From Candidatus Aminicenantes bacterium (GTDB taxonomy: Bacteria > Acidobacteriota > Aminicenantia > UBA2199), in the NCBI GenBank assembly GCA_024644125.1, contig JAHELQ010000002.1, positions 1 to 40,508 on the forward strand: DNA of 40,508 bases. Direction: 5' to 3'. Below are positions 2,121 through 40,508 of this stretch, in pieces. Position 1 is the first letter of the stretch. Every line of letters starts with the position of its first letter. The notes under the pieces are model-generated. The model searched no databases, was not told where the DNA came from, and was given only the letters and a program-made list of their open reading frames with translations. Position numbers and translations under genes: made by a program.

Positions 2121-3430
2121 TAATGCCCCGCCCATCTTTTATTTTGTAGATAGTTTCTCCCTCTGTTCTGTATCTCGGCAGATTTTTGGAGGGGCTCTGA
2201 ATTGCTATATATAGTCATCGTCAAAAATCCTAGATATTGACTGAAAGTAATTATTTCCTCTCTGGCGTCACCATATATATCTTGGATGTATGGTTTGGGC
2301 GAATCCAATCGAACAATGGGTTTGATGGGTTTGGGATTCCCGCTATTGTATTGGCAAATTGTGGATCGATAGATTATCTCATCAACACCAACTCCGTCCC
2401 AATCGACAACACCATCAAGTTTTATCTCCTTGATTAGTTGCCCCCCTTTCGAATTGTGGAGGTGAGGGCATTTCATACCTCTCCCAGGTAGCTTGTAATA
2501 GACAAACATCTCTTTTCCTGGGTGTTTCTCTGAGATATCGGCGGCAAATCCTGCATGAGCATGAAACGTGGTTTTGCAATTGCAGAAGTGAGTAAGCACA
2601 TTGCCTAAGTTGTCAGTCAAATAACCGCCCCATGGCGGTTGCTCAAAATGCATGAAAACCTCTAAACCTGCAACGTCCGGTCGGATATCAGAGATATAAA
2701 CTCCGTCTGCATGATTCCATTGTTGTTTGCCATGAAGGCCTTGAAATCCTGACTTACCGAACCGATAAACACCAAGAAATGCTTCATCCTTTCCATCTTG
2801 GTTAATATCTGCTATTTCGAAACGGTGCGCACTGGATAAACCAATGCCTGGAGGCTCATGAAAAAAGAAGACAGTATTCCAGGCTTGGTTTTCGTATCGA
2901 TATGCGACAACATATCTGTGTTGGTCCTTTTGGTGCCCACTGCCATAAACAACATAAGGATGCTCATCGAAATAAGCTATTCCAATTGTTTTGTAGCGCA
3001 AGGTCGGAGTTTTGCTATAGGAAGTACTTGGAACTGGGACCTTGGCAAGAACCTTTTTTGCAGTTGGGTCATATGCATAAAGATAATACTGCCCTTTCTT
3101 GGTATTGTAGCGAATCCCGACAAGCTCCTCTTTTCCATCTTCGTTGATATCCCAAAGGGTCGCCGGAATCCGAAGTAAAACTTCGGATTCCTTCATATCG
3201 ATATCAGCAACTGTTGCGCCTGAATGGGAAAGCACACGACAATGGACCGTCGTCTCTCCGGTTAGAATAAGAAAATCAGTCTTACCATCACCGTCAATAT
3301 CACCAGGCTTCACCATTGCATTCCCTGTTTTGGCAATGTAATGATAGCGTTTTAAAATATTCTGGTTGCCCAACAGGCTTACTGTTAAAACTAGGATTAA
3401 CGGAACAATAAACCGCATTTTATTCTCCAT
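2120..3430 (-). CDS. Secreted FG-GAP/VCBS-type beta-propeller repeat protein
   Basis: N-terminal signal peptide MRFIVPLILVLTVSLLG. Repeated Ca-binding DxDxDG motifs are present (GDIDGDGKTD, WDINEDGKEE, ADINQDGKDE). The gene is tightly packed in the late operon. Confidence 0.7.
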   Translation of the reverse strand: MENKMRFIVPLILVLTVSLLGNQNILKRYHYIAKTGNAMVKPGDIDGDGKTDFLILTGETTVHCRVLSHSGATVADIDMKESEVLLRIPATLWDINEDGKEELVGIRYNTKKGQYYLYAYDPTAKKVLAKVPVPSTSYSKTPTLRYKTIGIAYFDEHPYVVYGSGHQKDQHRYVVAYRYENQAWNTVFFFHEPPGIGLSSAHRFEIADINQDGKDEAFLGVYRFGKSGFQGLHGKQQWNHADGVYISDIRPDVAGLEVFMHFEQPPWGGYLTDNLGNVLTHFCNCKTTFHAHAGFAADISEKHPGKEMFVYYKLPGRGMKCPHLHNSKGGQLIKEIKLDGVVDWDGVGVDEIIYRSTICQYNSGNPKPIKPIVRLDSPKPYIQDIYGDAREEIITFSQYLGFLTMTIYSNSEPLQKSAEIQNRGRNYLQNKRWAGH

Positions 3431-15852: not shown

Positions 15853-16926
15853 TTATCTTTTTTCGGCGATTTGCAATGCTTCATGGAAGCTGCATTTCTG
15901 TTCCGCCTGGATTTTTCGCGCCCTATCATAGAGCTTCATATCTTCGGGCTCAACATTATCGCTTTCTGAGAACATAGAATCACCGTTCTCAGTATTTCGT
16001 TTCGGATTGAGTGACTCAAGTGGGATAATACTATTCTCCGGGACTTCGGAAAAAAGCATTTCAAGAAAATTTTTCGGTGCAAAGGTCGATTCCGAAAACT
16101 CAAGGGAAGATGTTTTCACAAGAAACTGAATAATGCCGTTCCTCATATTGGGCGTTACCTTTCCTTTCCGAAGCAATCCATCTGCGAATGCCTTTGCTTC
16201 ATCCAGGTTTTTTTCGTTCAATAGTTCCTTGAGTTTTTCCTCTGCGGCATTGAGTTTGTTTTGAACTTCATCGGGCTCGGTCGGCGGTACAGGCTGTAAC
16301 TGTGTTTTGGTTTCGGGCTCTGGTTCATGTTCCTTTTCTTCCTTGGTTTCCACTGTCTGTTCAGGTTTACGCAATTTATTTAGTAAATCCAATACTTTCT
16401 GAAGAATTCCGGGTTCTTTCTCTGTTTCGGTTTCTGTTCCGTTGTTTTCCCCTGAGGTCTTTTCGCCACTTTCCATTTCCGAAAATTCAATAGAAAATAC
16501 GTGGTCTTCTTTCGTACCTTCAGAAAAAGCCGCTTCCGGGACCTCAAGGCCTTTGATAGACGGGAACGGCGTAAAGCCGATGTGCCGCAATGACCAGTTT
16601 GCGCGGAATGCCGGGCTGACATAGCGATATTCACCCCGTCTTACAGATTCTGCGAATTCCGGTTGGGGATTCCTTGCTTTTGCCCAGAGTACTTCTCCGA
16701 CTCGTTTTACTTCTTCCACCCAAGCTTTCGCCGGGCTGTCATTTGCGGGGTGGCCAAGCACACAAGGGGCTTCTCGACCGTCCTTTTCTTTTTGATAGGT
16801 CGCTTCGATCCGATCCAAATCACTCGTAGAAACGACATGTTCTTTACCATTTGAGTCGGTATGAATTCCTGTCTTAAAAAACGGGAGCCACCCTTTCTCT
16901 TTGAGTTTGTTCACAATTTCTTTCAT
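15853..16926 (-). CDS. Mu gpI-like head maturation protease with C-terminal scaffold
   Basis: The N-terminal half has VLGHP...AWVEEVKRVGEVLWAKA...GEYRYVSPAF, as in the Mu-like prophage I protein family. The C-terminal half is acidic and coiled-coil (ETETEKEP...KLKELLNEKNLDEAK), which is scaffold-like. Confidence 0.75.
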   Translation of the reverse strand: MKEIVNKLKEKGWLPFFKTGIHTDSNGKEHVVSTSDLDRIEATYQKEKDGREAPCVLGHPANDSPAKAWVEEVKRVGEVLWAKARNPQPEFAESVRRGEYRYVSPAFRANWSLRHIGFTPFPSIKGLEVPEAAFSEGTKEDHVFSIEFSEMESGEKTSGENNGTETETEKEPGILQKVLDLLNKLRKPEQTVETKEEKEHEPEPETKTQLQPVPPTEPDEVQNKLNAAEEKLKELLNEKNLDEAKAFADGLLRKGKVTPNMRNGIIQFLVKTSSLEFSESTFAPKNFLEMLFSEVPENSIIPLESLNPKRNTENGDSMFSESDNVEPEDMKLYDRARKIQAEQKCSFHEALQIAEKR

Positions 16927-17272: not shown

Positions 17273-17509
17273 TTAGGAAATTTTCCGCAAAATGTTTAAG
17301 TGCCATTTACACCCAGTTTCAACCCGCTTTAATCCCTGTTTTAATTGTTTTTTTACTCTTTTTGTCATTTGCCTATATATCAGTGTTTTTTCTTTCGCCC
17401 CATTTAACAGGCTCAAGAAACGTTTAAATCTAACTCCGGGCATACTTTGGTATGCCTCCGCCGCGGTTCGCCCTTCCTCGTCAATTCTCGCAACTTTTAG
17501 GTTTCTCAT
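17273..17509 (-). CDS. Hypothetical basic protein
   Basis: 78 aa. Its start overlaps the portal stop (ATGA). Confidence 0.35.
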   Translation of the reverse strand: MRNLKVARIDEEGRTAAEAYQSMPGVRFKRFLSLLNGAKEKTLIYRQMTKRVKKQLKQGLKRVETGCKWHLNILRKIS

Positions 17510-19746
17510 TTTTCACCCCAAAAATCGCGCTCCTCAATCATGAATTCTGAGGTAACTTTTCCATTCAAATATTTGTGGTATTTCTCTTTTTTTGAAAGCA
17601 AATCTTTTAGGCGGTCCTGGTCAAAATCAAGTGGATCACCGGTCCAATCTGGATCATCTGCGCTTGGTTTTATCTTTCCCAGGAATTCGTCAACATCATT
17701 TGGCGTCGCGATAATCTTAGTACACCTACAGTTGTGTCCGTTTGGCGGGGACCATTTGGCCCATACTGGGTCATCATACCTAGCAACAAAGTTGTGCATG
17801 GCGGCATGATCCGCCCGTGTTGAAAGATCGATCACGGCGGAGTATCTCCAGTAGGGGAATTCATCAACCGACCTTCTGAGAGCAATCTCCTGTTGCGCTG
17901 CGTATGCGGAAGAAATGTTGTTCCGCCAAACGGTTTCTTGGTATGGGAAACAGTTTTTTACTCCATACAGTTCAAACATCTGCTTTTGGAACGCCTTGTA
18001 ATTGACTCCTTTCTGTAATGATTCTGTCAATTTTTCAAGGAGGTAATTCATTAAGTCTACATTCTGAATACCAGCGGAAGTAAATGCCGCTCTTCTTGCT
18101 TTTTCCTCAAGCAATTTGAAGTCCTCTCCCAGAACAGGTATCTTCTCACGTAACCATTTAATAGCGTCTTTGGGTTCCAGGACTTCCCAGTCACCCTCAA
18201 ATTCGGCGAAGCTGTTTGAAAAGGATTCGATTTGTTTGGAAACAGAGTATTCGCCAAGAAGCCTTGCGAGAATTATATATTTCTCCCAGGAACTTGCGGC
18301 CTTATTTTGATATTTTTGAAGCTCTTTGTAAAAACCTTTATAGTCCTTTGATTCGATTATTTTTTTGAGTGCCTTTTCGTTGACGGTCTCAAAATATATC
18401 TTTTGCTTATTGTAATTATAAATTCTTGTGATGTAATCATCGATCTTTTTTGCCAGTTCGTCCATTTCATTCTTTGGATCGACATTTTCAGAAAAACTTT
18501 TTTCATTTGGTACGGCCGCTAATTCTCCGAATAACTTAATTTTCCCATTATAACTCACCCGGTCGTTGTCTGTTGGATAGGGGATATTGTATTTTTCATA
18601 AATGTACGGGAGAGGTAATGGCAAGAATTGCTGAATTGTGGCATCACGCTGCGCGGCTTCGAGTGATGTATCTTCACTTGAAAGAGAAAGCACATATTCT
18701 GGTAACACTGTAAAAGAATAGTTCCATTGCGCTAAACGTTGGACGACCTGAATTGTAATATCATAAGCAAAGAATTTTGCATCCCTTTCAGTTCTTTGTT
18801 CTGTAATGCCTTCATGAACTACGGATTGTGCGCGAGTTCCAAATTGTGCTTCGTTTGTTGTTAACGGAGCTCCTAAAATAACTTTTGAGATATACTTGTC
18901 GCAAAAGGTGATAAACTTTTCGTATGAATCAATGCTTCCAGAACGTGATGCTTCTAAAAATTCAATCGTAAAATTGTTGGGGATAGCAATTGCGTAGTCA
19001 TTTTGAATCGCCTCAAGCGATGCAAGCAGGTTTTCCTGCCCTTCTTCAGTCGTTCCTGGAGGATACAAACCCGTCGGGGTTGGTTGTACATACTTCTCAA
19101 TATATACAGACCAGAACAACCAGGAGTGCTTTTTCATAAACCAGGGCCAGAAAAGACTAGTAAACAGTGAACGACCATACCTATTACCTTTTCTCGAATC
19201 GAATGAAAATACAGCAACCCGGTTTTCGTTAACTTCTATTCCATCCTGGTCTGAATCAGAGTACATCATTAATTTCCAGTCTGGTGAGAAAAAGAAATTC
19301 TCTTGATCATGCCCCTTCACTTTTTCAATAATGACTTTACCTTTCTTGATTGCATAGAACAATTCTATAATGGCATAGCCCTTTGCGATTGAATCTTGCG
19401 CTTCTGCTAGAATGTCATCTATTATTCCAGCTATATCGTTCTTCAACTCTCGCGCTTGTTCTAGATCGGCCTTCTCTTGTGAATCTACAACAATATCCCA
19501 ATCACATCCTAAAACTTTAGATTTTCTGGTTTCGAGATCGGAATACACCTGGCTATCCTGTTCGATTTCTTCGAATACAGCGAGCCCCTCTTGTATGCCC
19601 TCGGTGGTCTTTGAAAGAATTAGACTTGGATTGTCAATCTTTTGTTGGTATGCTCCAAATTTCTGTGCGCTTCGAACCTTCAAGACCTTTAGTGTTTTCG
19701 GATCGATCTTTTTTTTATCTGTTTTTTTATTTCTCTTTTTTTCCAT
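17506..19746 (-). CDS. Portal protein (Mu gp29 / DUF935-like) fused to a Mu F-like head morphogenesis domain
   Basis: The N-terminal ~450 aa are DUF935-like (DSQVYSDLETRKSKVLGCDWDIV). The C-terminal ~250 aa carry the MuF/SPP1-gp7 hallmark YWRYSAVIDLSTRADHAAMHNFV...WSPPNGHNCRCT. The start overlaps the TerL stop (TAATG). Confidence 0.85.
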   Translation of the reverse strand: MEKKRNKKTDKKKIDPKTLKVLKVRSAQKFGAYQQKIDNPSLILSKTTEGIQEGLAVFEEIEQDSQVYSDLETRKSKVLGCDWDIVVDSQEKADLEQARELKNDIAGIIDDILAEAQDSIAKGYAIIELFYAIKKGKVIIEKVKGHDQENFFFSPDWKLMMYSDSDQDGIEVNENRVAVFSFDSRKGNRYGRSLFTSLFWPWFMKKHSWLFWSVYIEKYVQPTPTGLYPPGTTEEGQENLLASLEAIQNDYAIAIPNNFTIEFLEASRSGSIDSYEKFITFCDKYISKVILGAPLTTNEAQFGTRAQSVVHEGITEQRTERDAKFFAYDITIQVVQRLAQWNYSFTVLPEYVLSLSSEDTSLEAAQRDATIQQFLPLPLPYIYEKYNIPYPTDNDRVSYNGKIKLFGELAAVPNEKSFSENVDPKNEMDELAKKIDDYITRIYNYNKQKIYFETVNEKALKKIIESKDYKGFYKELQKYQNKAASSWEKYIILARLLGEYSVSKQIESFSNSFAEFEGDWEVLEPKDAIKWLREKIPVLGEDFKLLEEKARRAAFTSAGIQNVDLMNYLLEKLTESLQKGVNYKAFQKQMFELYGVKNCFPYQETVWRNNISSAYAAQQEIALRRSVDEFPYWRYSAVIDLSTRADHAAMHNFVARYDDPVWAKWSPPNGHNCRCTKIIATPNDVDEFLGKIKPSADDPDWTGDPLDFDQDRLKDLLSKKEKYHKYLNGKVTSEFMIEERDFWGEK

Positions 19747-26847: not shown

Positions 26848-27822
26848 TTACGCCACCATTAAAGTCCTTTCAGCGGCAACAAGATCATCAAGTGTAAGGT
26901 CTCTCCCTTCCTGCTGGACCATATTTATTGCGGTCCGCAAGATCGCCGCCATTGTGCGATAATGCCCTTCACCCTCGGCTTTCTTTTTGAGGAAAGCTAC
27001 TACATCCTTTTGAGCGGTTGTTTTTATTGACTCCAACATCATGTTGATATCCATAGCCTCGACCTCATTTTTTAGCACACACCGCATCAGTTCGCGACTC
27101 CTAATTTGTTGGTAACGGCTCGCGTATTTCCCCGATGTCTGGTTAAGCAATTCCTCTGATCCACAGAAAACACATGGAACGTTGCATTCATCCGAAAGTT
27201 CACGGCAGGCTTCAAGCCCCTGATAACGCAGTTTGTGTGCTTCGTCTACCAAGATCATCGCATCAGTACCAGCGAGCATTTTATGGAGGAGGCGTTCCAT
27301 TTTTTTCTTGCCCCCCTGAATCCCTTTGTGCTCCTTGTATTCGTCCCAATCTTTTTCTGTAATTTCGGTAAAGATATCCTCCAAAATGTCATATTTTCCA
27401 TACCCAGTCTTGGCGGTCACAAGAAAAACTGATTCATTGCTGTCTCTAAAGTGCCGTAGAGTAGTAGTTTTTCCAAGTCCGGCACCTCCAATTATTTTCC
27501 CGAGACTCCGGTGGACTCGCGCATAGGTTAATACGGCGAGAGCTTGCCGGCTTTGATGTGTCTTTAGATATTCAAAATTGAGAAAAGCTGTTTCCTGGGC
27601 AAACCTCAACTGCAGGAATTTCCCAACTTTTTTCCCCAATGTTTCAGAATCTCCATTATATTTTCCCAAAAGCCATTGACTTAAGGCTGCTGGGGATACA
27701 CTCATCGCCTGAGCAATTTTCGATTGTGACCAGTTCTTATTTCTTTTTTGGAAGTTTTTTAAAGCTTCCTTTGCCGTGTTGTCATTGAGAGAATTATTCA
27801 ACATCATTTCGAAATCCTCCAT
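26848..27822 (-). CDS. MuB-like AAA+ transposition ATPase
   Basis: N-terminal HTH (WSQSKIAQAMSVSPAALSQWLLGKYNGD), Walker A GGAGLGKTT and Walker B MILVDEAH. It lies immediately downstream of the transposase. Confidence 0.85.
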   Translation of the reverse strand: MEDFEMMLNNSLNDNTAKEALKNFQKRNKNWSQSKIAQAMSVSPAALSQWLLGKYNGDSETLGKKVGKFLQLRFAQETAFLNFEYLKTHQSRQALAVLTYARVHRSLGKIIGGAGLGKTTTLRHFRDSNESVFLVTAKTGYGKYDILEDIFTEITEKDWDEYKEHKGIQGGKKKMERLLHKMLAGTDAMILVDEAHKLRYQGLEACRELSDECNVPCVFCGSEELLNQTSGKYASRYQQIRSRELMRCVLKNEVEAMDINMMLESIKTTAQKDVVAFLKKKAEGEGHYRTMAAILRTAINMVQQEGRDLTLDDLVAAERTLMVA

Positions 27823-27825
27823 TAT

Positions 27826-29763
27826 TTAAAATTCCGAGAGATGGTTGATCCACCGCTCATATATATCATCTGCTTTAGAATTCTTTTCTGTTTGTGTTTC
27901 TGCATCTGCAAGAGCATCAATAACCTGTGCCGCTCTTGCATCGGCTTTCTTTTGCTGTTCAACCCGCTTTTGTTCTTCGGCTACTATCGCCGCATACTTT
28001 GTACCCACAACTTTTTCGATCATACCCGGCTCCTGGAAATCAGGAATTCCCCGGGAGAATATCAATGCTTCCCTCTGCTCATTGGTCAACTTTTTCGCGT
28101 CATCCAACCAGGGCCTTACCGAATCCTTGAGTACCTTTTTGAGTCTCATCTGCCGTTTATACTCATCAGGATTTGCGCGCCAATGGGCGATTTGACGTTG
28201 TTCCGCAACACCTATATATTTGCCCTTCAGATCAAACAGAAATATTTTCGAAAGATCGTCTTCCGAATATCGTATGAAAACTTTTTCCCCAAGAAGTTTG
28301 AACTGAACTTGATCATTCCAATAGCGCGTGTCAAAGGCTTTGATTCCGTCCCTCTCCACTGTTAGTGGTTTCATATATTTCGAAGTAAGAAGGACAAGTT
28401 CTTCCTCTTTGACAGCTCGCTTTTCTTTCATGAGAGAAAAAAACACCTGGTTGGGAGTCCGTTTTTCCATGCCTTTTCCACGATGCTCCCTTTTTTCGTT
28501 ATAGTAATGATCTACCCAAACATGGATAGCTTCTTTAATATATTCATATGAATGCACCTTTTTCTTTCTGATTTTCTTCTCAAGACCATCGGGGCGTTCC
28601 AGGTAGTTTTTTCCCCGATAACCTGAAAAATAACACGCGAATTCTGTCCGAAATGTCTTGAAAAACCTCTCCACGGTCTTACTTTTGGCATTGTAGGGGA
28701 TTGCCCATGAAGTTTCAATTCCTAGCGTTTCGTATAGGCCTTGGACCTTGATCGCCTCTTTTTTCCCGAGGATTTGTATTTTCTCCTCTCCACCGCGAAA
28801 ATGCTTACATCGATAGTCCTTCCCATTATCCAAGTGCACCATCTCAGGTACACCATATTGAAGGATTGCTTGGCGGAGAGAAATATTAATGGTGTCGCTG
28901 TTAGGCTTCTCCGAAAGAACCCAGGAAATTACTTTGCGACTCCTGACATCATACCAGACGGTTAGCCAGGGAAAACAAACCCGTTCTTCCCCTGTATCGA
29001 GATCACGTATCCGGCAAGCCACATCCACTTGATGATGGTCGGATTCAATAATCTCCATTACATTTACGCTCGTTACATCCCGTTCTATTGATGGGACGCA
29101 AGTATCTTCAAAAACTTTTTTCCCTTCCCTGGCGGCTACTTTCACCGGTTTGGGGATTGCCCGGATGTACCGCCGCCACGTCTCAAATGATCCAACCTTC
29201 CACCCTTTGATTTCGGCGGCTCGGAGGATTTCATTATAAGCAAGCTTCAGCGTCCATCTGTTGCCGTGCAGATACAACCTTCTACCATATTCCAGAGCTT
29301 CTTCCGAAAACACTTCAAACGATGGCCGATTACTTTTCCATCCCGGAAGTAACCCTTTCATCCCATAATCCCGATAGGCTTTTTGCCAGCGAAACAGCGT
29401 AGCCCGGTTTGCGTCAATCCCGGATTCCTGGAGAAATTCGGAAATAACAACGCTTTTCCCTGCCCCTTTCTCCTCGGCGTACCTCGCCCACTCTTGGAGA
29501 ACACTGAACCGGTATTCCGCGATCTTGCGTTTTTTCTCTGTCACATGTGCCGCTTCCTGGACTTCTTTCCGCTGTGTTTCTTCGTATTTTTTTTTTAGTT
29601 CACCACTTAAAGAGGATAGGGCTATTATAAATCTTTCTTTCCCCTTCCTTTGTCTTTTGTCTACTTGTGCTATATACTTATTTGCCTTTATCTTTTTATG
29701 TACAGCTTTTTTCGAAATTCCTTCAAGTTCTGCAACTTCCCGAACAGGGATCCAGATTTCCAT
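27826..29763 (-). CDS. MuA-like DDE transposase
   Basis: N-terminal winged-HTH (VREVAELEGISKKAVHKKI). The DDE triad is IIESDHHQVD (D242), VHLDNGKDY (D312) and TVERFFKTF (E365). The spacings of 70 and 53 aa compare with 67 and 56 in MuA. There is a Mu-transposase C-terminal-like region (ERDGIKAFDTRYWND). Confidence 0.9.
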   Translation of the reverse strand: MEIWIPVREVAELEGISKKAVHKKIKANKYIAQVDKRQRKGKERFIIALSSLSGELKKKYEETQRKEVQEAAHVTEKKRKIAEYRFSVLQEWARYAEEKGAGKSVVISEFLQESGIDANRATLFRWQKAYRDYGMKGLLPGWKSNRPSFEVFSEEALEYGRRLYLHGNRWTLKLAYNEILRAAEIKGWKVGSFETWRRYIRAIPKPVKVAAREGKKVFEDTCVPSIERDVTSVNVMEIIESDHHQVDVACRIRDLDTGEERVCFPWLTVWYDVRSRKVISWVLSEKPNSDTINISLRQAILQYGVPEMVHLDNGKDYRCKHFRGGEEKIQILGKKEAIKVQGLYETLGIETSWAIPYNAKSKTVERFFKTFRTEFACYFSGYRGKNYLERPDGLEKKIRKKKVHSYEYIKEAIHVWVDHYYNEKREHRGKGMEKRTPNQVFFSLMKEKRAVKEEELVLLTSKYMKPLTVERDGIKAFDTRYWNDQVQFKLLGEKVFIRYSEDDLSKIFLFDLKGKYIGVAEQRQIAHWRANPDEYKRQMRLKKVLKDSVRPWLDDAKKLTNEQREALIFSRGIPDFQEPGMIEKVVGTKYAAIVAEEQKRVEQQKKADARAAQVIDALADAETQTEKNSKADDIYERWINHLSEF

Positions 29764-30320
29764 TATTTGCTCCTCGGGATCGATAAGATTTCTATTTTTC
29801 CGCCGACATAACAGTCATACTTTATTGCACATTCGATTGCCTTTTTTATTCTGTCTGTTGTAATAATTTTGCTGTCTCTTAGAGCTTCCAATGCTCCATA
29901 AGCATATTCAGACCCTGAGCCTATGCACACCCAATCAGCATACTCAACTAGATTACAATTTCGTTCAATGTGCCACAAGCTCTTGCGAAATGCTAATACC
30001 ATTGAGTTTATCTCCCACTCACCCTCAATGCCCATTCCATTTTGTTTGAATACATCAATCATGCGTGGAATAAATATTCTAACTAAATATTCACGAGTAC
30101 TATATCCAAATGGCATTTTCGGTAAAACAAAATTACTTTCAACAATAGTTTTTTGCCTTGTACTACCTACGCAACCAATAACCATCTCTTTTCCGCATAT
30201 TGTTTTCTTTTTAAATATTTTTTTATGGTCTGTGGTCGAGATAAAAGAGCCGGCAGTCAGTTGAGAATCTGCCCCAACATATATATTTCCTTCATCTATA
30301 TATCCAACTACAACACTCAT
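29763..30320 (-). CDS. HslV / proteasome-beta-like Ntn hydrolase with an N-terminal Ser in place of Thr
   Basis: Aligns by eye along its whole length to E. coli HslV. MSVVVGYIDEGNIYVGADSQLTAG matches [23 protein letters not shown]; HKKIF matches VKKV; VIGCVGS matches IAGFAGG; IGSGSEYAYGALEAL matches IGSGGPYAQAAARAL. Confidence 0.8.
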   Translation of the reverse strand: MSVVVGYIDEGNIYVGADSQLTAGSFISTTDHKKIFKKKTICGKEMVIGCVGSTRQKTIVESNFVLPKMPFGYSTREYLVRIFIPRMIDVFKQNGMGIEGEWEINSMVLAFRKSLWHIERNCNLVEYADWVCIGSGSEYAYGALEALRDSKIITTDRIKKAIECAIKYDCYVGGKIEILSIPRSK

Positions 30321-30535
30321 GATTTCTCCTCTAAATATTTCTCAACAAGCCTTTCTTCTAGGTATTTTATGAAGGTGATCAATTCATCGAGAGACGTTTT
30401 CTCTTTGACATCCTTTGATGAAATAGCAAGTGCCAGCAAAGCTTCTGTTGAAACCTCTACTTTTTTTGCCAAGAGCTTTGCCTTGATCGCTTTTTTTTGT
30501 CTAGCATCTATTTCAAAATGGGTAATCGTTTTCAT
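30317..30535 (-). CDS. Hypothetical small helical protein
   Basis: 72 aa, ATGA-coupled to the HslV-like gene. Confidence 0.4.
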   Translation of the reverse strand: MKTITHFEIDARQKKAIKAKLLAKKVEVSTEALLALAISSKDVKEKTSLDELITFIKYLEERLVEKYLEEKS

Positions 30536-32464: not shown

Positions 32465-32671
32465 TTAACTCGCATTTACGGCCACCGCAAGAATCGCAAT
32501 CTCTCGGTCAACATATTCCGAATCTCGATGGCCATTTATTACCCTCGACACCCATTCGGGCCTTCGATTGATCCGCGCAGCGAAGTCCCTTTGGCTTATG
32601 CCATTTCGCAACAATACATATTTACTAAATGCTGCTTTTTGTTTTCTAAGGTCAATTTGTTGAACTTTCAT
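32465..32671 (-). CDS. Cro/Ner-like small HTH regulator, first gene of the early operon
   Basis: 68 aa with HTH ISQRDFAARINRRPEWVSRVINGH. It is divergent from the repressor gene, and its ATG lies 6 nt after a -10 box. Confidence 0.6.
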   Translation of the reverse strand: MKVQQIDLRKQKAAFSKYVLLRNGISQRDFAARINRRPEWVSRVINGHRDSEYVDREIAILAVAVNAS

Positions 32672-32685
32672 GTTACAATAGTAAC
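32672..32685. promoter_or_regulatory. Operator candidate 1: perfect palindrome GTTAC-AATA-GTAAC
   Basis: Read directly from the sequence. It covers the -10 box and predicted start site of the early promoter. Confidence 0.5.
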
Positions 32686-32706
32686 ATCGTTGCCTTGTTT
32701 TGTCAA
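32678..32706 (-). promoter_or_regulatory. Early promoter (sigma70-like): TTGACA-17 nt-TACTAT, then 6 nt to the ATG
   Basis: The reverse complement of 32669-32706 reads TTGACAaaacaaggcaacgatgtTACTATtgtaacATG. The -35 is a consensus match, the spacing is ideal, and no room is left for an SD sequence. The transcript is therefore probably leaderless. Confidence 0.6.
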
Positions 32707-32738: not shown

Positions 32739-33158
32739 GTGAATAAAGAAGATCAAATTAATGTTGGCCTTAGATTTAAAGAAATAAGAAAGACGCTTAA
32801 TCTTGGGCAAAGTGAACTTGCAAATATAGCCGGTGTTTCGCGCTCCCTCCTGTCTTTATGCGAGAATGGTACAAAAACCCCGAGTTACCAACTATTGGTG
32901 GCTCTGGCAACAAAGTTAAACATAGATATCAACTGGCTTATTTCTGGCAACGGTGACATGTTTACGGGGCCAAAGATAGATTATGGTGCACTTACCGATG
33001 AGATGCAAGATATGTTTTTTCATATTGAACACATCCCCGAACTTCGGCTACATATTCTTGAAGAATTTCTACATTTCAAAATAAGAAATAAGGAGAAAAT
33101 AGAGAAACAGCTAAGCAAGGAACGTAAAGGAAAAGAAAAAGGGAGAATTGCCAGATGA
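32739..33158 (+). CDS. XRE/CI-type HTH repressor (prophage immunity repressor candidate)
   Basis: LRFKEIRKTLNLGQSELANIAGVSRSLLSLCENGTKTPSYQLLVALATKLNIDINWLISGNG is a classic HTH_3 / phage CI N-terminal domain. The start is GTG with no obvious SD sequence. The gene is divergent from the early operon, and it has no S24 peptidase domain. Confidence 0.8.
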   Translation: MNKEDQINVGLRFKEIRKTLNLGQSELANIAGVSRSLLSLCENGTKTPSYQLLVALATKLNIDINWLISGNGDMFTGPKIDYGALTDEMQDMFFHIEHIPELRLHILEEFLHFKIRNKEKIEKQLSKERKGKEKGRIAR

Positions 33159-33781
33159 ATGAAAGGGAAAGCTTTAAGGAAGAACTTCTAGATTTACTAA
33201 ATATTCCTGAAGTAGAAAAAATAATAATGATTTCGCTTGAACGCGCGAAATTTTCTTGCGCAACCGAAATTCAGACATACGTTGATTTAAAAAATCATTT
33301 TGTCCCAACAGCGGGTAAACGCTTAATGATACTCGAAAATGCAAAGGAAATTGTATATCGTTTTGAAATAGAATTTCATGAGAATTGTTCTTCTGTTTCT
33401 AAGTTTGAGCCAGCACCACCACCAGGACAATCAATAACCGATATCATTGACAAAGACATCTTGAAAAGCATTACTGAGAAAGTCTCGGATCGTCAAAAAA
33501 TTCATAGCTTAAAAAATAAGAATAAGCACATTGAATTTGTTCGGTTCCCTAGTACTGCCTTTGGATCTATTCGTGATAGTATAGCGAAAAAGAGCAATCC
33601 AAACGATTGCATTACATTATCAATTGATCCACAAGCTGGAGAGTTTGAAGAAATGTTCTATTATATGAAGAAATTTCCACAATTGAAAGCAAGCTTATTT
33701 ACTCAATTCTACTACATGCTCCCTCACTTTGAGATTTCGCAAAGCGACAATACAGAAGATGTCAATGTCGAAATTATCTAA
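33155..33781 (+). CDS. Hypothetical 208-aa protein translationally coupled to the repressor
   Basis: Its ATG overlaps the repressor stop (ATGA at 33155-33158). The DNA is AT-rich. No motif I recognise. Confidence 0.6.
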   Translation: MNERESFKEELLDLLNIPEVEKIIMISLERAKFSCATEIQTYVDLKNHFVPTAGKRLMILENAKEIVYRFEIEFHENCSSVSKFEPAPPPGQSITDIIDKDILKSITEKVSDRQKIHSLKNKNKHIEFVRFPSTAFGSIRDSIAKKSNPNDCITLSIDPQAGEFEEMFYYMKKFPQLKASLFTQFYYMLPHFEISQSDNTEDVNVEII

Positions 33782-35615
33782 CACTCACGAATCTTGGATC
33801 AACTAAAAGCTTTTTATCCAAACGCTTAGCCTCATCAAATTGCGTTTTTGGGGAAGGAAAATCTTGACTGATATAATAGATTGTTTTGCCCTCCTTAGCG
33901 AGAGTGTGCAAGAATTCCATTAGGTTTTTTTCTAATTCCCTCGAAGTACCTTTGGCAAAATCGTCAATTATATACACGCGCTTTTCTTCGCTGAGTACTA
34001 ACGCGCCTATTGCTTTATCTAATAGTTCAGAATCTTTTTCCCGCAGAGACGCCCCAAAATAGCGCTCAAGATTAGACGTAAATGTCTTGAACTCTACCCC
34101 ACGGAGCTCTGATAGAAACTCAAAGAGAGTCTTAATATTTATCTCTTCAAGAATTTCTTTAACCCTATATTTTTTCAATAATGCGATCGAAGTTGACCAG
34201 ACTATTTGTGAGCTTTGTTTTTTCCACTTATCGCTAATGGCAAGAAAAAATATATACCCTTCTTTCCCATTGCTTTCATTTTCGAGAAAGCCTAATTTAG
34301 AATCAAAGCCAGTTAACTTATTGATTAATCTCCAGATTAAAGACATACTGATAACAAAATAGAACAAGCAAAAGGTCACGCCATATATCAAAAGCCCTGA
34401 AAGTTTACTTTTTGATCGATAAATATATTCATTGGTTTTTTGAAATAAGGCCTGTACGGGTTCATTTCTCCTAAAACGTTTTTCAATGTAGTATTCATGG
34501 AATTTAGTGCGAATTTCAAACACATAATCTAAATATGATAAGTATGAAGAATAACCCGTTCCTGATAATTCTGTCGCCATTTTAGATGCAAAAACCCAGG
34601 GAAATACACCTGCGTAAGAACGATGATATTTTACTATCCCTCTGAGAGATGCTACAAATTTTTCTTCAAGAATATCATTTCTTTTTTTTGTTTTTTTAAT
34701 ATAGCGGTCGGCCATTTCGCCCATTTTTTCCTGTATACCACTTTCACCTTTTTCCTTCATCTTCCGCAAAACTTCAAGCGCTTCGCGCTCAAATTTCATT
34801 GAATTGCTTATTTTTTGAATATTGATCGATTCTATATTTGGAAGTCCCCTAGCTTTAATTCGTACCAGATTTTTTGCAACACCCGGAATAATAATTACAC
34901 AAAAAAGAAATAACGCAAGTGATACATAGTAAGCATTCTTTTTCCAGCGAAAGATAAGCATCAGTAGAAATCCCAAAACATACATGAGGTTTACGACCAA
35001 GATAAATATCAGTATTACGATTAAATAATGTAAATATTCATTCCCAGTAAAACTTATTTTCTGAATTAATGGAACAATTATTGGTATAAAAGAAATTACT
35101 AAAAAAATAATATCCAATAAAACTAATCTGAAAAAAACTAGCAGTAGAATTGCGCTTTTCTTGCGTAGTAGCTCACAGAGATCGTTACTACCAATTGCCG
35201 TCAAGCCCATATACAACATTATAATACCGCCAAAAAACAAAAAGATTTCTGTGATATCTAGTCCAGAATTGAAAAGGTTTTTGCCTCGCGTCGCTTGAAA
35301 TACATCTACAGTTTCCTTTGTATTTATTTCAGACATCATTTGTTTATTTAGAATTGATTGTGAAAAGAACATTGCCAGGGGGGAGGGGCGCGACATAACA
35401 CGAAAACCATACGCCCCATATTGCTCATATGTAAAATATTTTTTGATCTTCAGCTCTTCAAACTGACAGAAATTTTTCTCCTTCTGAAGATAATCTTTCC
35501 AACTTTCCACCCCTGACCATGCGGAAAAAACTAGCATTATTGTGAATATAATAAATAGAATTCTATTTCTATAATTTACGAGCCTCCTTAATTCAAATTT
35601 AATAACGATTTTCAT
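33774..35615 (-). CDS. Multi-pass membrane protein: ABC-2-like permease region, seventh TM helix, then a C-terminal degenerate ABC-ATPase-like domain
   Basis: Topology is TM1, a ~90-aa loop, five closely spaced TM helices, a ~150-aa helical region, TM7, and a ~185-aa tail. The tail has a Walker-B/D-loop/H-loop-like string KRVYIIDDFAKGTSRELEKNLMEFLHTLAKEGKTIYYISQD. The Walker A position reads GYIFFLAISDKWKKQSS, with no glycine-rich loop. There is no LSGGQ signature. Confidence 0.7.
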   Translation of the reverse strand: MKIVIKFELRRLVNYRNRILFIIFTIMLVFSAWSGVESWKDYLQKEKNFCQFEELKIKKYFTYEQYGAYGFRVMSRPSPLAMFFSQSILNKQMMSEINTKETVDVFQATRGKNLFNSGLDITEIFLFFGGIIMLYMGLTAIGSNDLCELLRKKSAILLLVFFRLVLLDIIFLVISFIPIIVPLIQKISFTGNEYLHYLIVILIFILVVNLMYVLGFLLMLIFRWKKNAYYVSLALFLFCVIIIPGVAKNLVRIKARGLPNIESINIQKISNSMKFEREALEVLRKMKEKGESGIQEKMGEMADRYIKKTKKRNDILEEKFVASLRGIVKYHRSYAGVFPWVFASKMATELSGTGYSSYLSYLDYVFEIRTKFHEYYIEKRFRRNEPVQALFQKTNEYIYRSKSKLSGLLIYGVTFCLFYFVISMSLIWRLINKLTGFDSKLGFLENESNGKEGYIFFLAISDKWKKQSSQIVWSTSIALLKKYRVKEILEEINIKTLFEFLSELRGVEFKTFTSNLERYFGASLREKDSELLDKAIGALVLSEEKRVYIIDDFAKGTSRELEKNLMEFLHTLAKEGKTIYYISQDFPSPKTQFDEAKRLDKKLLVDPRFVSVR

Positions 35616-35624
35616 TTATTTATT

Positions 35625-36287
35625 CTAGTCCTGGCAGTTTTCTTCCGTTGAGATTTCAAGTATTTCTCTCCCAATGCGGGTAGCATAGTTGCCATACATT
35701 GTCGCATGAGACATTAACTCAACCAATTCCCACATTTTTGCTTTATCTGGTTTTTCATTTCTATTTAATGCGGCCTCAATTGCAGCGAGACACACAATAA
35801 TACTGTCTACATTTGCTATATTTTTGGCGTGGATCGCAATTATATCGCCTTGTACAAGTTTATTCTTCAATTCTGTCGCAATAACTGTATTCATGTTTTT
35901 CGCGCTTATAAAACCTTCATAGTCAAAGGCCAAAAACTTTTGGAGTCGCATTTCATTATATCCTATCTTTTCTCCAATTTGCTTCGCAGTTGAGTATAAT
36001 TCTCTTGCTTTTTTCATTTCAGTAATTGCAAGTAAGATATAATTTTTCATTGTTTGCTGGTCAAGCATTCTTAGTTCTGCTCGCTCATATTCGGCACATG
36101 CCAACATAATATATCCTTGTGATGAAAGAAAACGGGCTGCACCCTCGACTATGCTTTCATTCATGTCAACTTTTTCTGCCCCCGTCCGAAAGGGGCATAT
36201 AATATCATTCATTACCATTACTCCAGGCATTTGGAGTGCAAATATCAATATGCTAATTAAGACTATCGCGTTTTTTCGCGTATTCAT
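35625..36287 (-). CDS. Secreted or N-terminally anchored all-helical protein (220 aa), first gene of the cargo operon
   Basis: The preferred start is ATG 36287 (MNTRKNAIVLISILIFALQMPGVMV, a signal-like peptide), with a perfect AAGGAGG SD sequence 8 nt upstream. The longer ORF start at 36359 would overlap the predicted promoter. Confidence 0.65.
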   Translation of the reverse strand: MNTRKNAIVLISILIFALQMPGVMVMNDIICPFRTGAEKVDMNESIVEGAARFLSSQGYIMLACAEYERAELRMLDQQTMKNYILLAITEMKKARELYSTAKQIGEKIGYNEMRLQKFLAFDYEGFISAKNMNTVIATELKNKLVQGDIIAIHAKNIANVDSIIVCLAAIEAALNRNEKPDKAKMWELVELMSHATMYGNYATRIGREILEISTEENCQD

Positions 36288-36330
36288 TTTAATATCCTCC
36301 TTAGTAATTATCTTTATTCTACCTTTTGTT

Positions 36331-36359
36331 ATTTTAAGTAAATTCTCTTTTTCTTTCAA
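36331..36359 (-). promoter_or_regulatory. Sigma70-like promoter of the cargo operon: TTGAAA-17 nt-TAAAAT
   Basis: The reverse complement reads TTGAAAgaaaaagagaatttactTAAAAT, about 45 nt upstream of the SD sequence and ATG at 36287. Confidence 0.45.
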
Positions 36360-36804: not shown

Positions 36805-39800
36805 TTACCCCCTATATGAAGACTGCCGGTAGAATTCCTGTTGGGGCGCCGGGGGGATCGTGTCGTGGATTTCCGTGACCTGCGCCGCGATATACCTGCT
36901 CAACGCCCGGAGGGTTTGGGTCTCGAAAATTTCCGCCAGAGGTATTTTTACCGAAAGCTCTTTATGTACCATGGCAAGCATGATTGTGGCCTTCAACGAA
37001 TGGCCGCCCAGGTGGAAAAAATTGCTGTCCATACCGATGCTCTCCGGCGAGACGGCCAATACTTCGGACCACATGGCCGCGAGCCTGCATTCCAGCTCGC
37101 TGCGGGGGGGGTCCGCCGGGCTGTCTAAAATATCGATGCGAGGTTCTGGTAACGCTTTCCGATCCACTTTGTTACTGGTATTGAGCGGGAGACTCTCCAA
37201 TTGCATAAAATAGGCGGGAATCATGCAATCGGGTAATTTCATTCCCAGATACTCCCGCAATTCCTGAGCCGGAACCGTAACCGCCGAGACAAAATAGGCG
37301 CAGAGATAACAATCGCCGTCATCCCGTTTCCGGTCCACAACCACCACTGCGGATATATCCTCACGGTTCAGGAGCAAGGACTCGATCTCCTGCAACTCGA
37401 TTCTGAAGCCGCGAATCTTGACCTGGGAATCCACCCTGCCCAGGAATTCCACATCGCCCTCTTCCAGGAACCGGGCCAGATCCCCGGTTTTGTAAACGAT
37501 GTCCCCCCCGGCAAACGGATGGGGGATAAATTTTTCCGCGGTCAGGTCCGGATTGTTCAGATACCCTCTCCCCAATCCCTTGCCTCCGATATACACTTCT
37601 CCAAAAACTCCAACGGGCGCCGGCCGTAACCGCCGGTCCAGAATATACACCGTGGTGTTGGAGATGGGTTTGCCGATGGGAATGGTGCCCGAGCGCCCAT
37701 CGACCTCATCCACCGGATAATAGGTCGCATACACCGCGCTTTCGGTAGGGCCGTACATATGAATGAGCCGTCCCTTGCCCAACCGTCCCAGCACCTTGCG
37801 GACATGAGTCGCCGATACCTTCTCGCCGCCGAATAAAATCTTGCGCACACAATCCAGACAGTCAATTTCATAATCGGCCAATACATTGAATAACGCTGTA
37901 GTGACTAAAAAGACAGACACGGCCTCTTTTTTCAAGGCGGCGGCGATATGACTCGCCGACTGGGCCTCGCTCTGCTTCGCCAGCACCAGCGCCGCGCCGT
38001 TGAGAAATGCTGCGAAAATGTCGAACACCGACCCGTCAAAGGCATAGTTGGACAATTGCAAGAGCCTGTCCCCCTCTCCAATATCAATATAATTGGTATT
38101 CCGGGCAATCCGGATGACATTGGCGTGAGTGATGAGAGTCCCTTTGGGCTTGCCTGTGGTGCCGGAAGTGTAAATCACATAGGCTAGATCCCCTGCGTCA
38201 CCGTGCGTCATGGAATTTCTGACGCGAAATACATCCGAGCATTCATCGAGATTGAAAACCTCAGCGGGAATATCGCCGTGAAGTTCGAAGGGGCGGCTAC
38301 TATGACCCAGTACCAGCGACACTCCACTGTCCCGCAACATAAAACCGGTCCGTTCCACCGGGAAATCCGGGTCCAGAGGCAAATAGGCGCCGCCGGCCCG
38401 CAAAATCGCCAGAATCGCGATCATCATGTCTATAGACCGGGGCAAACACACCGCCACTAACGAATCACTGCGCACGCCTTTGTTTCCCAGCACAACCGCC
38501 AATAATTCCACCCGCAGGAAGAGTTCGCTGTAGGTTAGTTGTATCCAGTCGCCGCGATCCCCCGCATCCAATGCGACACCGCTTATGGCCGCGCGGTCGG
38601 GAAACCGCGCCACAGTTTCGCCGAACAATTGTGAAATGGTCTTGTGGGCTGGGTAATCTGTCCGGGTTTGGTTGAACTCCTGGATGACACGAAACGTTTC
38701 CTCCTCGTCCATGAGTTCAGTCTCGTCCAGAAGAAGCAAATCAGATTCCGCTACCTGCCGGATGACATTCCGCAGATGACGGGCGAAGCGCAGGATAGTT
38801 CCGCGCTTGAACAGCCGGGTGCAATATTCCAATTGGAAGTGCACCCGCCCATCGGATTCTTCGACAAATATCGTGAGGTCGAATTTGGCGCTGACGCTTT
38901 CGCAATCAACCGGTTGCAGCCGGAGGCCTCGCATGGCGATATCCGGCCGCCTGTAATTTTGCACCACCATCACCACGTCGAACAATGGATTGCGGGAGGG
39001 ATCCCTCTCCAGTTTCAGTTGATCTACCAGAGCTTCGAATTGCACATCCTGGTTTTCGAAGGCCTTGATGCAACGGCCCTTCACCTCCGATAAAAACTCG
39101 TTGAACGGTAAATCTCCACGCGGAGAATTCCGCATCGCCAGCATATTGATGAACATTCCGATGATATGGTGCAAATCCGCGTGGGGCCGCCCCATAACAC
39201 CCGTCCCCAGCACGATATCCTCCTGCCCCGTATACTTGAAAAACACAAGATTCAGGACCGCCAGTAAGTTCATATACAGGGTTATACCGTACCTGTCCCC
39301 CAGCCGGCTGAAATGGTTTGCCAGCTCCGGTTCCAGACTGAAGCGGTAACTCTCCCCGTCGTGCCCCTGGATGTCCGGCCTGGGGAAATCCAGCGGCAAG
39401 TCGAGCTTTGGTATAACTCCGTCAAATTGCCCCAACCAATAATCCACCTGCCGGCGGATCCGCGGCGTGATGGAGTTTTGCCAGAGGGAAAAATCCCTGT
39501 ATTGGACCTTGAGGGGATCCAGGTCATCGCCATTGTAGAGGCGGGCCAATTCCTCGATAAAAACTGCCAGCGAGGTTCCGTCGCTGACAATATGATGAAT
39601 ATCGTAAATAAAAAGCCACCGTTCATTGGGCAAAAGAGCGAAGCCAGCCCTCAGGAGCGGGGCCTTCGCGAGGTCGAAGGGACGGACAAACCGGTCGATC
39701 ATTATCTGGATGTCCTCATCGCCAGCAGGCGGGGGCATCTGCCCCTCCGGCGATTGCCGCTCGTCGATCCATGTCCCGGGATTCGGGTGGTACCATTCGA

Positions 39801-40508
39801 TGGAGATGTCCACGTGCGGAGCCACCTTTTGAACAGGTTCTTGCCCAACGAATGCGAACGAGGTTCGCAGGGTTTCATGACGGGCGGTCAACGCTCGCAA
39901 GGCGTGCTTCCAACGGGGAAGATCGAGCTCCCCCTCACCTCTGTACACCACGGGAATGTTGTAACTCTGGCTAATGTTTTCGAATTGATCCAATATGAAC
40001 ATCCGCTTTTGGGCGGACGTTTGCGGGTAATATTCCCTTTTCTCCAGAGGCTGGATCCCCTGGTAGATATCCCGGCCGGAGGCGGCGATAAAACCGGACA
40101 ATCGGCGGATGGTGGGTTCCTTGAAGATCGCGGCCAACGGTACCTTGACATCGAATTCTTTATGAATGCGGGAAACCAGGACAGTCGCCTTCAACGAATG
40201 CCCCCCCAAATCGAAGAAGCTGTCGTCGATACCGATTACACGCTTCTCCAACTTCAGCACCTCTCCCCAGATCTCCTGCAATTTGCGGTCCGTCCAATGA
40301 CGGGGAGGCGCATAGGAAGCCTCCGATGTCACTTGCGGCTCAGGCAGCCGGCCGCGGTCGATTTTGCCATTGGCATTCAGAGGGAACTTTTCCAATTGGA
40401 CAAAAAAAGCGGGAATCATAAAATCGTGCAGATGGAAAGAGAGAAACTCCTTCAACGCCACAGTGTCCAATTGCGTCCGCGCCACAAAATAGGCGCACAA
40501 CGTCTTGT
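36805..40508 (-). CDS. Non-ribosomal peptide synthetase fragment: (A C-terminal end)-T-C-A-T, then the first ~10 residues of a further C domain followed by a stop
   Basis: Two T-domain motifs are present: FFDLGGHSLKAT and FFHLGGHSLKAT. C-domain motifs are YPQTSAQKRMF and HHIVSDGTS. A-domain motifs are LAYVIYTSGTTGKPKG, FDGSVFDIF, MYGPTES, GEVYIGGKGLGRGY, YKTGDLAR, KIRGFRIELQEIE and NKVDRKALP. The frame continues past the window edge (KTLCAYFV). The region is GC-rich. Confidence 0.9.
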   Translation of the reverse strand, partial: KTLCAYFVARTQLDTVALKEFLSFHLHDFMIPAFFVQLEKFPLNANGKIDRGRLPEPQVTSEASYAPPRHWTDRKLQEIWGEVLKLEKRVIGIDDSFFDLGGHSLKATVLVSRIHKEFDVKVPLAAIFKEPTIRRLSGFIAASGRDIYQGIQPLEKREYYPQTSAQKRMFILDQFENISQSYNIPVVYRGEGELDLPRWKHALRALTARHETLRTSFAFVGQEPVQKVAPHVDISIEWYHPNPGTWIDERQSPEGQMPPPAGDEDIQIMIDRFVRPFDLAKAPLLRAGFALLPNERWLFIYDIHHIVSDGTSLAVFIEELARLYNGDDLDPLKVQYRDFSLWQNSITPRIRRQVDYWLGQFDGVIPKLDLPLDFPRPDIQGHDGESYRFSLEPELANHFSRLGDRYGITLYMNLLAVLNLVFFKYTGQEDIVLGTGVMGRPHADLHHIIGMFINMLAMRNSPRGDLPFNEFLSEVKGRCIKAFENQDVQFEALVDQLKLERDPSRNPLFDVVMVVQNYRRPDIAMRGLRLQPVDCESVSAKFDLTIFVEESDGRVHFQLEYCTRLFKRGTILRFARHLRNVIRQVAESDLLLLDETELMDEEETFRVIQEFNQTRTDYPAHKTISQLFGETVARFPDRAAISGVALDAGDRGDWIQLTYSELFLRVELLAVVLGNKGVRSDSLVAVCLPRSIDMMIAILAILRAGGAYLPLDPDFPVERTGFMLRDSGVSLVLGHSSRPFELHGDIPAEVFNLDECSDVFRVRNSMTHGDAGDLAYVIYTSGTTGKPKGTLITHANVIRIARNTNYIDIGEGDRLLQLSNYAFDGSVFDIFAAFLNGAALVLAKQSEAQSASHIAAALKKEAVSVFLVTTALFNVLADYEIDCLDCVRKILFGGEKVSATHVRKVLGRLGKGRLIHMYGPTESAVYATYYPVDEVDGRSGTIPIGKPISNTTVYILDRRLRPAPVGVFGEVYIGGKGLGRGYLNNPDLTAEKFIPHPFAGGDIVYKTGDLARFLEEGDVEFLGRVDSQVKIRGFRIELQEIESLLLNREDISAVVVVDRKRDDGDCYLCAYFVSAVTVPAQELREYLGMKLPDCMIPAYFMQLESLPLNTSNKVDRKALPEPRIDILDSPADPPRSELECRLAAMWSEVLAVSPESIGMDSNFFHLGGHSLKATIMLAMVHKELSVKIPLAEIFETQTLRALSRYIAAQVTEIHDTIPPAPQQEFYRQSSYRG

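Follow-up and report, generated by a model that had tools for sequence, protein, structure and literature searches.

A divergent Ser1-type proteasome-like protein encoded directly upstream of the transposase gene in a Mu-like prophage

A 185-amino-acid (aa) open reading frame (ORF) on the minus strand of contig JAHELQ010000002.1 (Candidatus Aminicenantes bacterium, assembly GCA_024644125.1; 29763..30320 in the ORF list) encodes a proteasome-like protein and lies immediately upstream of the MuA-like transposase gene (A) of what is, judging by its gene content, a Mu-like prophage. We analysed this gene within the first 40,508 nucleotides of the contig (hereafter, the window). The gene is tightly packed between its neighbours: its stop codon (TAA, 29765..29763) shares one base with the transposase start codon (ATG, 29763..29761) to give TAATG, and its own ATG (30320..30318) overlaps the TGA of its 5′ neighbour, orf72, reading ATGA. 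Direct reading of the sequence places a Shine–Dalgarno motif (AGAGGAG, 30326..30332, minus strand) 5 nucleotides before this ATG, and the transposase's own GAGGAG (29775..29770) falls within the 3′ end of the proteasome-like gene. Because homologues starting MT(C/V)IVG or MS(V/C)VVG align with the N terminus (MSVVVG) from residue 1, the choice of start codon is secure, as is the placement of the nucleophile, and the protein has no propeptide.

We regard it as near certain that the gene product is a proteasome-like N-terminal-nucleophile (Ntn) hydrolase, of a divergent Ser1 type, belonging to the phage branch of the group I proteasome homologues (that is, the radiation of HslV, BPH, AAH, CPH and PPH, whose phage branch is annotated as PHROG 1040). 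The protein matches Pfam PF00227 (Proteasome) with 35 bits against a gathering score of 22.4 (E = 1.5e-8), over residues 114–179 only, and PHROG 1040 ('peptidase HslV family') over residues 7–184 (E = 1.6e-23, 84.7 bits). A single-sequence search of the Protein Data Bank (PDB) returned the proteasome subunit beta5 as the top match with the whole length covered (E = 2.8e-5), and a family profile compared with PDB sequences aligned over the full length with both Thermotoga maritima HslV (6.7e-18) and BPH (2.5e-17). Homologues are numerous and distant: an exhaustive HMMER search of 1.84 billion representative sequences gave 2585 matches at E<=1e-3 and 247 at E<=1e-10. Identity did not exceed 37% over the matched stretches or 36% in global alignments, and no close relative turned up in IMG/VR when the protein alone was the query.

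The proteasome catalytic set is present in register, namely Ser2 (Ser1 after removal of the initiator methionine), Asp18, Lys34, Gly49 and Gly134-Ser135-Gly136, together with Asp169. Across an alignment of 113 homologues, Lys34 and Gly134 are invariant, Asp18 and Gly136 are each kept in 111, Gly49 in 108 and Ser135 in 78, and position 2 is Thr in 99 and Ser in 14. Alignment with yeast beta5 equates Ser135 with Ser129 and Asp169 with Asp166. On conservation and modelling, the protein is apparently catalytically competent; Ser is a permissive second residue for methionine aminopeptidase, the action of which would remove Met1 and expose the Ser1 nucleophile.

Structure prediction, made for the monomer only, agrees with this assignment. 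An AlphaFold2 (AF2) model built with the family alignment is very confident (predicted local distance difference test score (pLDDT) of 95.7; predicted template modelling score of 0.91) and has a compact core with helices H1–H4 at residues 54–63, 75–93, 137–146 and 154–168 and no extra C-terminal elements; the predicted fold is the alpha-beta-beta-alpha sandwich of proteasome beta subunits. Foldseek ranks BPH first (template modelling (TM) score of 0.83), followed by HslV (0.67–0.73) and 20S beta subunits (0.65–0.70), with a probability of 1.0 for all three, and 34 viral structures in BFVD match at E<=1e-3 with TM scores of up to 0.91. An earlier reading of the sequence alone (the sequence-only reading) had proposed an Ntn hydrolase of 185 aa at these coordinates, with Ser rather than Thr at residue 2 and the TAATG overlap with the transposase, and all of this is confirmed by sequence reading, Pfam, PHROG and AF2/Foldseek. 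That reading had also named unconserved catalytic residues among homologues, or a fold other than that of an Ntn hydrolase, as grounds for abandoning the proposal; the set is kept in the 113 homologues, and the predicted structure returns BPH, HslV and 20S beta subunits.

Proteasome homologues carried by phages have been described previously. Fuchs, Alva and Lupas (2021) described the group I homologues (HslV, BPH, AAH, CPH, PPH and others), reported PPH and AAH in many phage genomes and as spread by phages, called PPH 'the first true viral member' and marked CPH as present in phages too (Table 1 of PMC8665760). The view that such a protein was without a described role or unknown in phages therefore overlooked the phage-borne PPH, AAH and CPH, which are routinely annotated as PHROG 1040. 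With these phage group I homologues the window protein shares a compact subunit of ~180 aa without propeptide or insertions, the Thr/Ser1-Asp17-Lys33-Gly47 set, carriage by a phage or prophage and the lack of a partner ATPase; it differs from them in being at most 36% identical to any searched protein, in having Ser in place of the majority Thr, and in its location within the early operon of a transposable, Mu-like phage, a setting that was met only once more (locus L021, see below). PPH itself is rejected, given that PPH has ~140 residues and no H2 (PMC8665760), whereas the window protein has 185 residues and an H2 predicted at 75–93. AAH and CPH would both fit the compact group I architecture and the carriage by a phage.

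Comparison with the better-known cellular relatives places the protein near, but outside, each of them. BPH (PDB 5ovs, 5ovt and 5ovu) is the best structural match and is aligned by the family profile over its full length; BPH has no partner unfoldase and many BPH proteins have Ser1 (PMC5777263), such that the Ser1 and missing ATPase partner of the window protein are known BPH traits. Nevertheless, BPH proper is rejected: BPH carries 3–4 inserted residues ahead of its catalytic Lys (Lys-37), has a pore loop that is elongated and acidic, and forms a heptameric double ring (PMC5777263), whereas the family profile, when aligned with 5ovu, has a gap of 3 residues just before the Lys, which in the window protein stands at the canonical position 34 (33 after Met removal). 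BPH genes are moreover cellular and found in stress-regulated operons, whereas the window gene is phage-borne. As for HslV (ClpQ), the fold, the catalytic residues and the absence of a long propeptide are shared, and the full-length alignment claimed in the sequence-only reading holds, being weak in the pairwise comparison with Escherichia coli HslV (20% identity over the full length; E = 1e-4 for a single comparison) and significant for the family profile (hhalign, 97.9%, E = 3.4e-13, columns 1–182 against 1–174). The label 'orphan HslV' is overstated, however, and an HslV orthologue is rejected, because the protein falls short of the NCBIfam equivalog models by a wide margin (TIGR03692, 29.1 bits against 157.75; NF003964, 28.6 against 137) and is structurally nearer to BPH; unlike HslV, it also has no adjacent hslU. 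A Ser nucleophile has a precedent in this family too, in the Ser1 HslV CodW of Bacillus subtilis (cited in PMC5777263). To 20S beta subunits the likeness extends to the Ser129 and Asp166 equivalents (S135 and D169), although the window protein differs in the lack of a propeptide and of an alpha-subunit partner, in the lower TM score and in having Val at the Ser169 equivalent. A prohead protease is likewise rejected, as the phage has its own head maturation protease (15853..16926, phrog_976).

The family is widespread in phages. Using a consensus-like family member as the tblastn query, we found relatives in 210 GenBank phage records, many of them annotated 'peptidase HslV family', and relatives occur on at least 559 IMG/VR contigs. 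Most members reside in non-transposable phages, many of which are large (roughly 90–440 kb), and E. coli jumbo phages are among the carriers. In a neighbour analysis of 80 IMG/VR loci and several metagenome contigs, for which ORF calling was crude and the counts are indicative rather than exact, the recurrent same-strand neighbours were head-module genes, with portal directly downstream at 18 loci, prohead protease at 19 and capsid at 12, in addition to terminase (identified via locus L007 with Pfam Phage_portal, Peptidase_S78 and Phage_capsid). The contexts are varied and typically phage-like: some members precede terminase or a set of portal, protease and capsid genes, and others lie in early regions.

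No gene for an HslU- or ClpX-like unfoldase was found in the 40.5-kb window by Pfam and PHROG scans of the ORFs tested and a Walker-A scan, in line with the claim that no HslU-type AAA+ partner is encoded there. The only recognised AAA+ protein of the prophage is the MuB-like protein, which is not an unfoldase of the HslU or ClpX type. Among ORFs of at least 100 aa, strict Walker-A matches were confined to this protein, a 436-aa ORF (2120..3430, family not checked) and a 114-aa ORF inside a non-ribosomal peptide synthetase (NRPS) gene; the strict pattern missed the large terminase that PHROG identifies. Neither a recurrent ATPase gene nor a conserved small ORF adjoins family genes, upstream or downstream, in the IMG/VR neighbour analysis.

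The surroundings of the gene in the window are those of a Mu-like early region. The transposase (645 aa, 27826..29763, minus strand) matches Pfam DDE_2, Mu-transpos_C and HTH_Tnp_Mu_2 and phrog_310 'transposase' (E = 6e-105), and is followed by the MuB-like AAA+ transposition ATPase (324 aa, 26848..27822, minus strand; Walker A GGAGLGKT; Pfam AAA_22 and TniB, phrog_296), the product of gene B. Further 3′ of A, Pfam and PHROG identify a DNA methyltransferase, an endolysin, small and large terminase subunits, a portal–MuF fusion, the head maturation protease and a major head protein. On the 5′ side of the proteasome-like gene, also on the minus strand, lie orf72 (30317..30535, in the ORF list; on reading its sequence, a small K/E-rich helical protein), orf118, orf65, orf320, a gene for a CII-like regulator (phrog_2345) and, as the first gene of the early leftward operon, a gene for a small Ner/Cro-like helix-turn-helix (HTH) protein (32465..32671, minus strand; phrog_1468 transcriptional repressor, E = 1.1e-6, with weak HTH Pfam matches). 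Just upstream of the latter, a consensus scan alone marks a sigma-70-like candidate early promoter (TTGACA-17 nt-TACTAT, with TG; 32678..32706, minus strand) for the operon that includes the proteasome-like gene, although promoter-like sites are no more numerous in the early region than in shuffled controls. A CI/XRE-type repressor gene diverges from it (139 aa, 32739..33158, plus strand; Pfam HTH_19, HTH_3 and Phage_CI_repr, and repressor-type PHROGs). There are no gaps between the genes from the Ner-like gene to B, and the overlaps at both ends suggest that the proteasome-like gene is translationally coupled to A within the early operon. Given this packing and the promoter-like site, early co-expression with A and B after derepression would be a reasonable expectation.

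Among Mu-like phages, such an arrangement is rare. None of the 160 Mu-like loci most related by MuA (80 from IMG/VR and 80 from metagenomes; up to 42% identity, with up to 7 kb of flank) carries a family member, even though 134 of them extend more than 600 nucleotides upstream of A and 97 extend more than 2 kb. Conversely, only one of the 80 IMG/VR family loci is Mu-like: L021 (118..4189) encodes MuA, MuB and four small ORFs followed by an MTCIVG-type proteasome-like gene, which thus lies downstream of B. Base composition also sets the window gene apart, with 36% GC (30% at third codon positions (GC3)) and 35.6% GC in orf72, against 44% for A and B; GC3 is 30–36% over the two genes, whereas the flanking early genes have 44–49% GC. 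For orf72, no homologue was found in 5.8 billion proteins and no match in Pfam, PHROG or PADLOC; its model is a three-helix structure of low confidence (pLDDT 66.5). The low GC content common to both genes suggests an acquired accessory cassette, and we think that the two were probably gained together as a single unit (29763..30535). The gene is real and well supported. It adds a new, divergent protein to a family already known to be associated with phages, and the type of phage that carries it is unusual without being unique. Precedents exist for its orphan status, for its Ser nucleophile and for its carriage by a phage; what is new is the position in a transposable phage.

On the basis of these observations, we propose that the gene encodes a competent proteasome-like hydrolase of the phage branch that serves as an accessory, host-directed early gene and not as part of the transposition or repressor circuitry, a statement that we hold, as a whole, with a rough probability of 0.55. 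Its occurrence mostly in non-transposable phages and its absence from related Mu-like phages favour such a general accessory role over turnover of the repressor or transpososome, and the variable positions of family members elsewhere argue in the same direction. More specifically, and only tentatively, we suggest a horizontally acquired ('moron'-type) early gene for host takeover or counter-defence. In this scenario, derepression would fire the early promoter and translation of the proteasome-like protein would be coupled to that of orf72 and A, after which Met1 may be removed to expose Ser1. Ser1, Lys33 and Asp17 would then form a proteasome-type active site, as conservation and the model support. 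By homology, the subunits could assemble into a double ring similar to those of BPH and HslV, and, with no phage unfoldase dedicated to it, this ring may act on a limited range of substrates (unfolded proteins or peptides).

Several points weigh against this proposal. Both the activity and the ring assembly of the window protein are predictions, and BPH, the closest solved structure, binds epoxomicin yet is inert on standard peptide substrates and casein in vitro (PMC5777263), so that protein hydrolysis by the window protein is not guaranteed. In the second shell, the Ser169 equivalent is the Val mentioned above, and the Asp166 equivalent is variable in the family (Asp in 35, Ser in 28 and Asn in 24 of the 113 homologues). 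No RNA signal for the region was found in the metatranscriptome that matches the source sediment metagenome, the window being found in one sediment metagenome at a depth of ~2–4x; thus, of the earlier claim that the gene is co-expressed with A and B, the early-operon position and the coupling stand, whereas co-expression as such has no counterpart in the metatranscriptome. An anti-defence role draws on loose neighbourhood hints, and no PADLOC-DB model is matched by the protein or its neighbours. Finally, we found no functional study of any phage family member in the searchable literature, and searches for phage HslV- or proteasome-like function, or for Mu-like phages with HslV, gave nothing relevant beyond PMC8665760 and genome announcements.

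The same behaviour of BPH gives some credit to a different possibility, namely that the protein is a non-degradative Ntn hydrolase or transpeptidase that performs connectase-like ligation, cleaves specific peptide or isopeptide conjugates or cleaves small-molecule amides. Connectase demonstrates ligase chemistry on a proteasome-type fold (PMC8665760), and one distant Ser-type subfamily is found in VWA–PP2C–sigma factor neighbourhoods that resemble signalling. However, the compact model lacks a connectase-like helical insertion over the active site and no substrate candidate was identified, and we consider this explanation unlikely. Alternatively, the protein could be an HslV mimic that hijacks host HslU or another host AAA+ unfoldase to give a phage-directed ATP-dependent protease. 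HslV is essentially inactive without HslU. The end-to-end alignment of the family profile with HslV, the occurrence of members in phages of HslUV-bearing hosts (for example, E. coli jumbo phages) and the lack of a phage-encoded unfoldase in the window scans are all compatible with such hijacking; by contrast, the protein scores 29 bits against the equivalog cut-offs of 137 and 158, is only 20% identical to E. coli HslV, has a predicted fold nearer to the partner-less BPH than to HslV, and derives from a sediment metagenome that leaves the phage without an identified host, all of which makes hijacking quite improbable to our minds.

A role in transposition or lysogeny is suggested most directly by the position of the gene, directly upstream of A, coupled to it and in the early operon. 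The Mu repressor is a substrate of ClpXP and ClpX acts on the MuA transpososome; a protease in this place could accordingly be imagined to degrade the CI-type repressor (that is, as a feed-forward commitment to lytic growth) or to remodel or destroy the MuA transpososome, replacing or supplementing host ClpXP, the more so as the 139-aa HTH repressor has no Pfam match to a self-cleaving peptidase domain. This link, which the sequence-only reading had drawn, finds no support in the comparative data. The gene is missing from all 160 MuA-related loci, the sole other Mu-like example has it downstream of B, most family members belong to non-transposable phages (many of roughly 90–440 kb) and the low GC content points to recent acquisition; the absence from Mu-like loci and the low-GC cassette together make a transposition-specific role very improbable. 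Least credible of all is the idea that the protein is a scaffold without catalysis, or that the prophage is defective and the gene a passenger in decay. In its favour, the protein is a singleton whose homologues all have 36% identity or less, and the metatranscriptome shows no expression signal. Against it, the ORF is intact, its ribosome-binding site is strong and its start matches that of the family, all first-shell catalytic residues are kept and the AF2 model is very confident.

Returning to the accessory early gene that we favour, a bolder form of it can be envisioned in which orf72 and the proteasome-like gene are a captured early effector wired to the transposase. As a partner-less ring protease of the Ser1 type, the product would lock in lytic commitment by destroying either one particular host protein, with a role in defence or proteostasis, or the repressor of the phage itself. 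We think this improbable as it stands, but if true it would provide the first assigned function for a large family of phage proteasome homologues. Such homologues are numerous (in hundreds of phage genomes and viral contigs), and none has an assigned function or substrate in the searchable literature. The window gene adds a divergent Ser1 member to them and indicates that the family can be inserted into a Mu-like early operon, with apparent coupling to the transposase. Given its origin in a sediment metagenome without an identified host, the window phage is of limited experimental use, and cultivable carriers (E. coli jumbo phages, Vibrio phages and Geobacillus phage E3) are better entry points.

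Some further loci of the family show contexts of their own. At locus L001 (8001..12210), a Ser-type homologue (P0020) is followed by ORFs of 55 and 212 aa, a 696-aa protein with two AAA domains and a faintly Band_7-like protein, possibly a proteasome-like plus unfoldase operon in a cellular genome. In the early region of a temperate phage (L006, 4445..11462), the gene for a ParB_N/HTH protein overlaps the start of the proteasome-like gene, after which come HTH_17 and integrase genes, and a protein with SEC-C and Acb2/Tad1-hairpin domains (an anti-CBASS/Thoeris-type fold) is encoded ~4.4 kb downstream; this neighbourhood offers a loose hint of anti-defence. On a phage contig (L175, 306..11999), two RtcB ligase genes and a full-length eRF1-like gene (eRF1_1/2/3) lie directly upstream of the proteasome-like gene, and the terminase that comes after it is split by a LAGLIDADG/Hint intein. 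A Ser-type subfamily (P0002-P0019, N terminus MSVVVAIKENGK) is found at L011 (570..2959), L012 and L013 (55..2730) in a conserved order of VWA, PP2C-type phosphatase, an ORF of 146–157 aa, the proteasome-like gene and a sigma-70 region 2 protein, an arrangement more suggestive of a module for signalling or conflict than of a phage.

Elsewhere in the window, a single ORF of 746 aa (17506..19746) joins the portal protein to a minor head protein domain resembling Mu F (phrog_113 over residues 10–504 and phrog_220 over 255–698). A 208-aa ORF on the plus strand (33155..33781) overlaps the stop codon of the repressor gene and is without NCBIfam or PADLOC matches; it is probably expressed in the lysogen and is a candidate lysogeny-expressed accessory gene. 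A block of 34% GC (33774..36359) separates the repressor side of the prophage, at 43% GC, from the NRPS gene (36805..40500, ~50–55% GC); it contains ORFs for a multi-pass membrane protein of 613 aa and for a protein of 244 aa, neither of which has a PADLOC or informative NCBIfam match.

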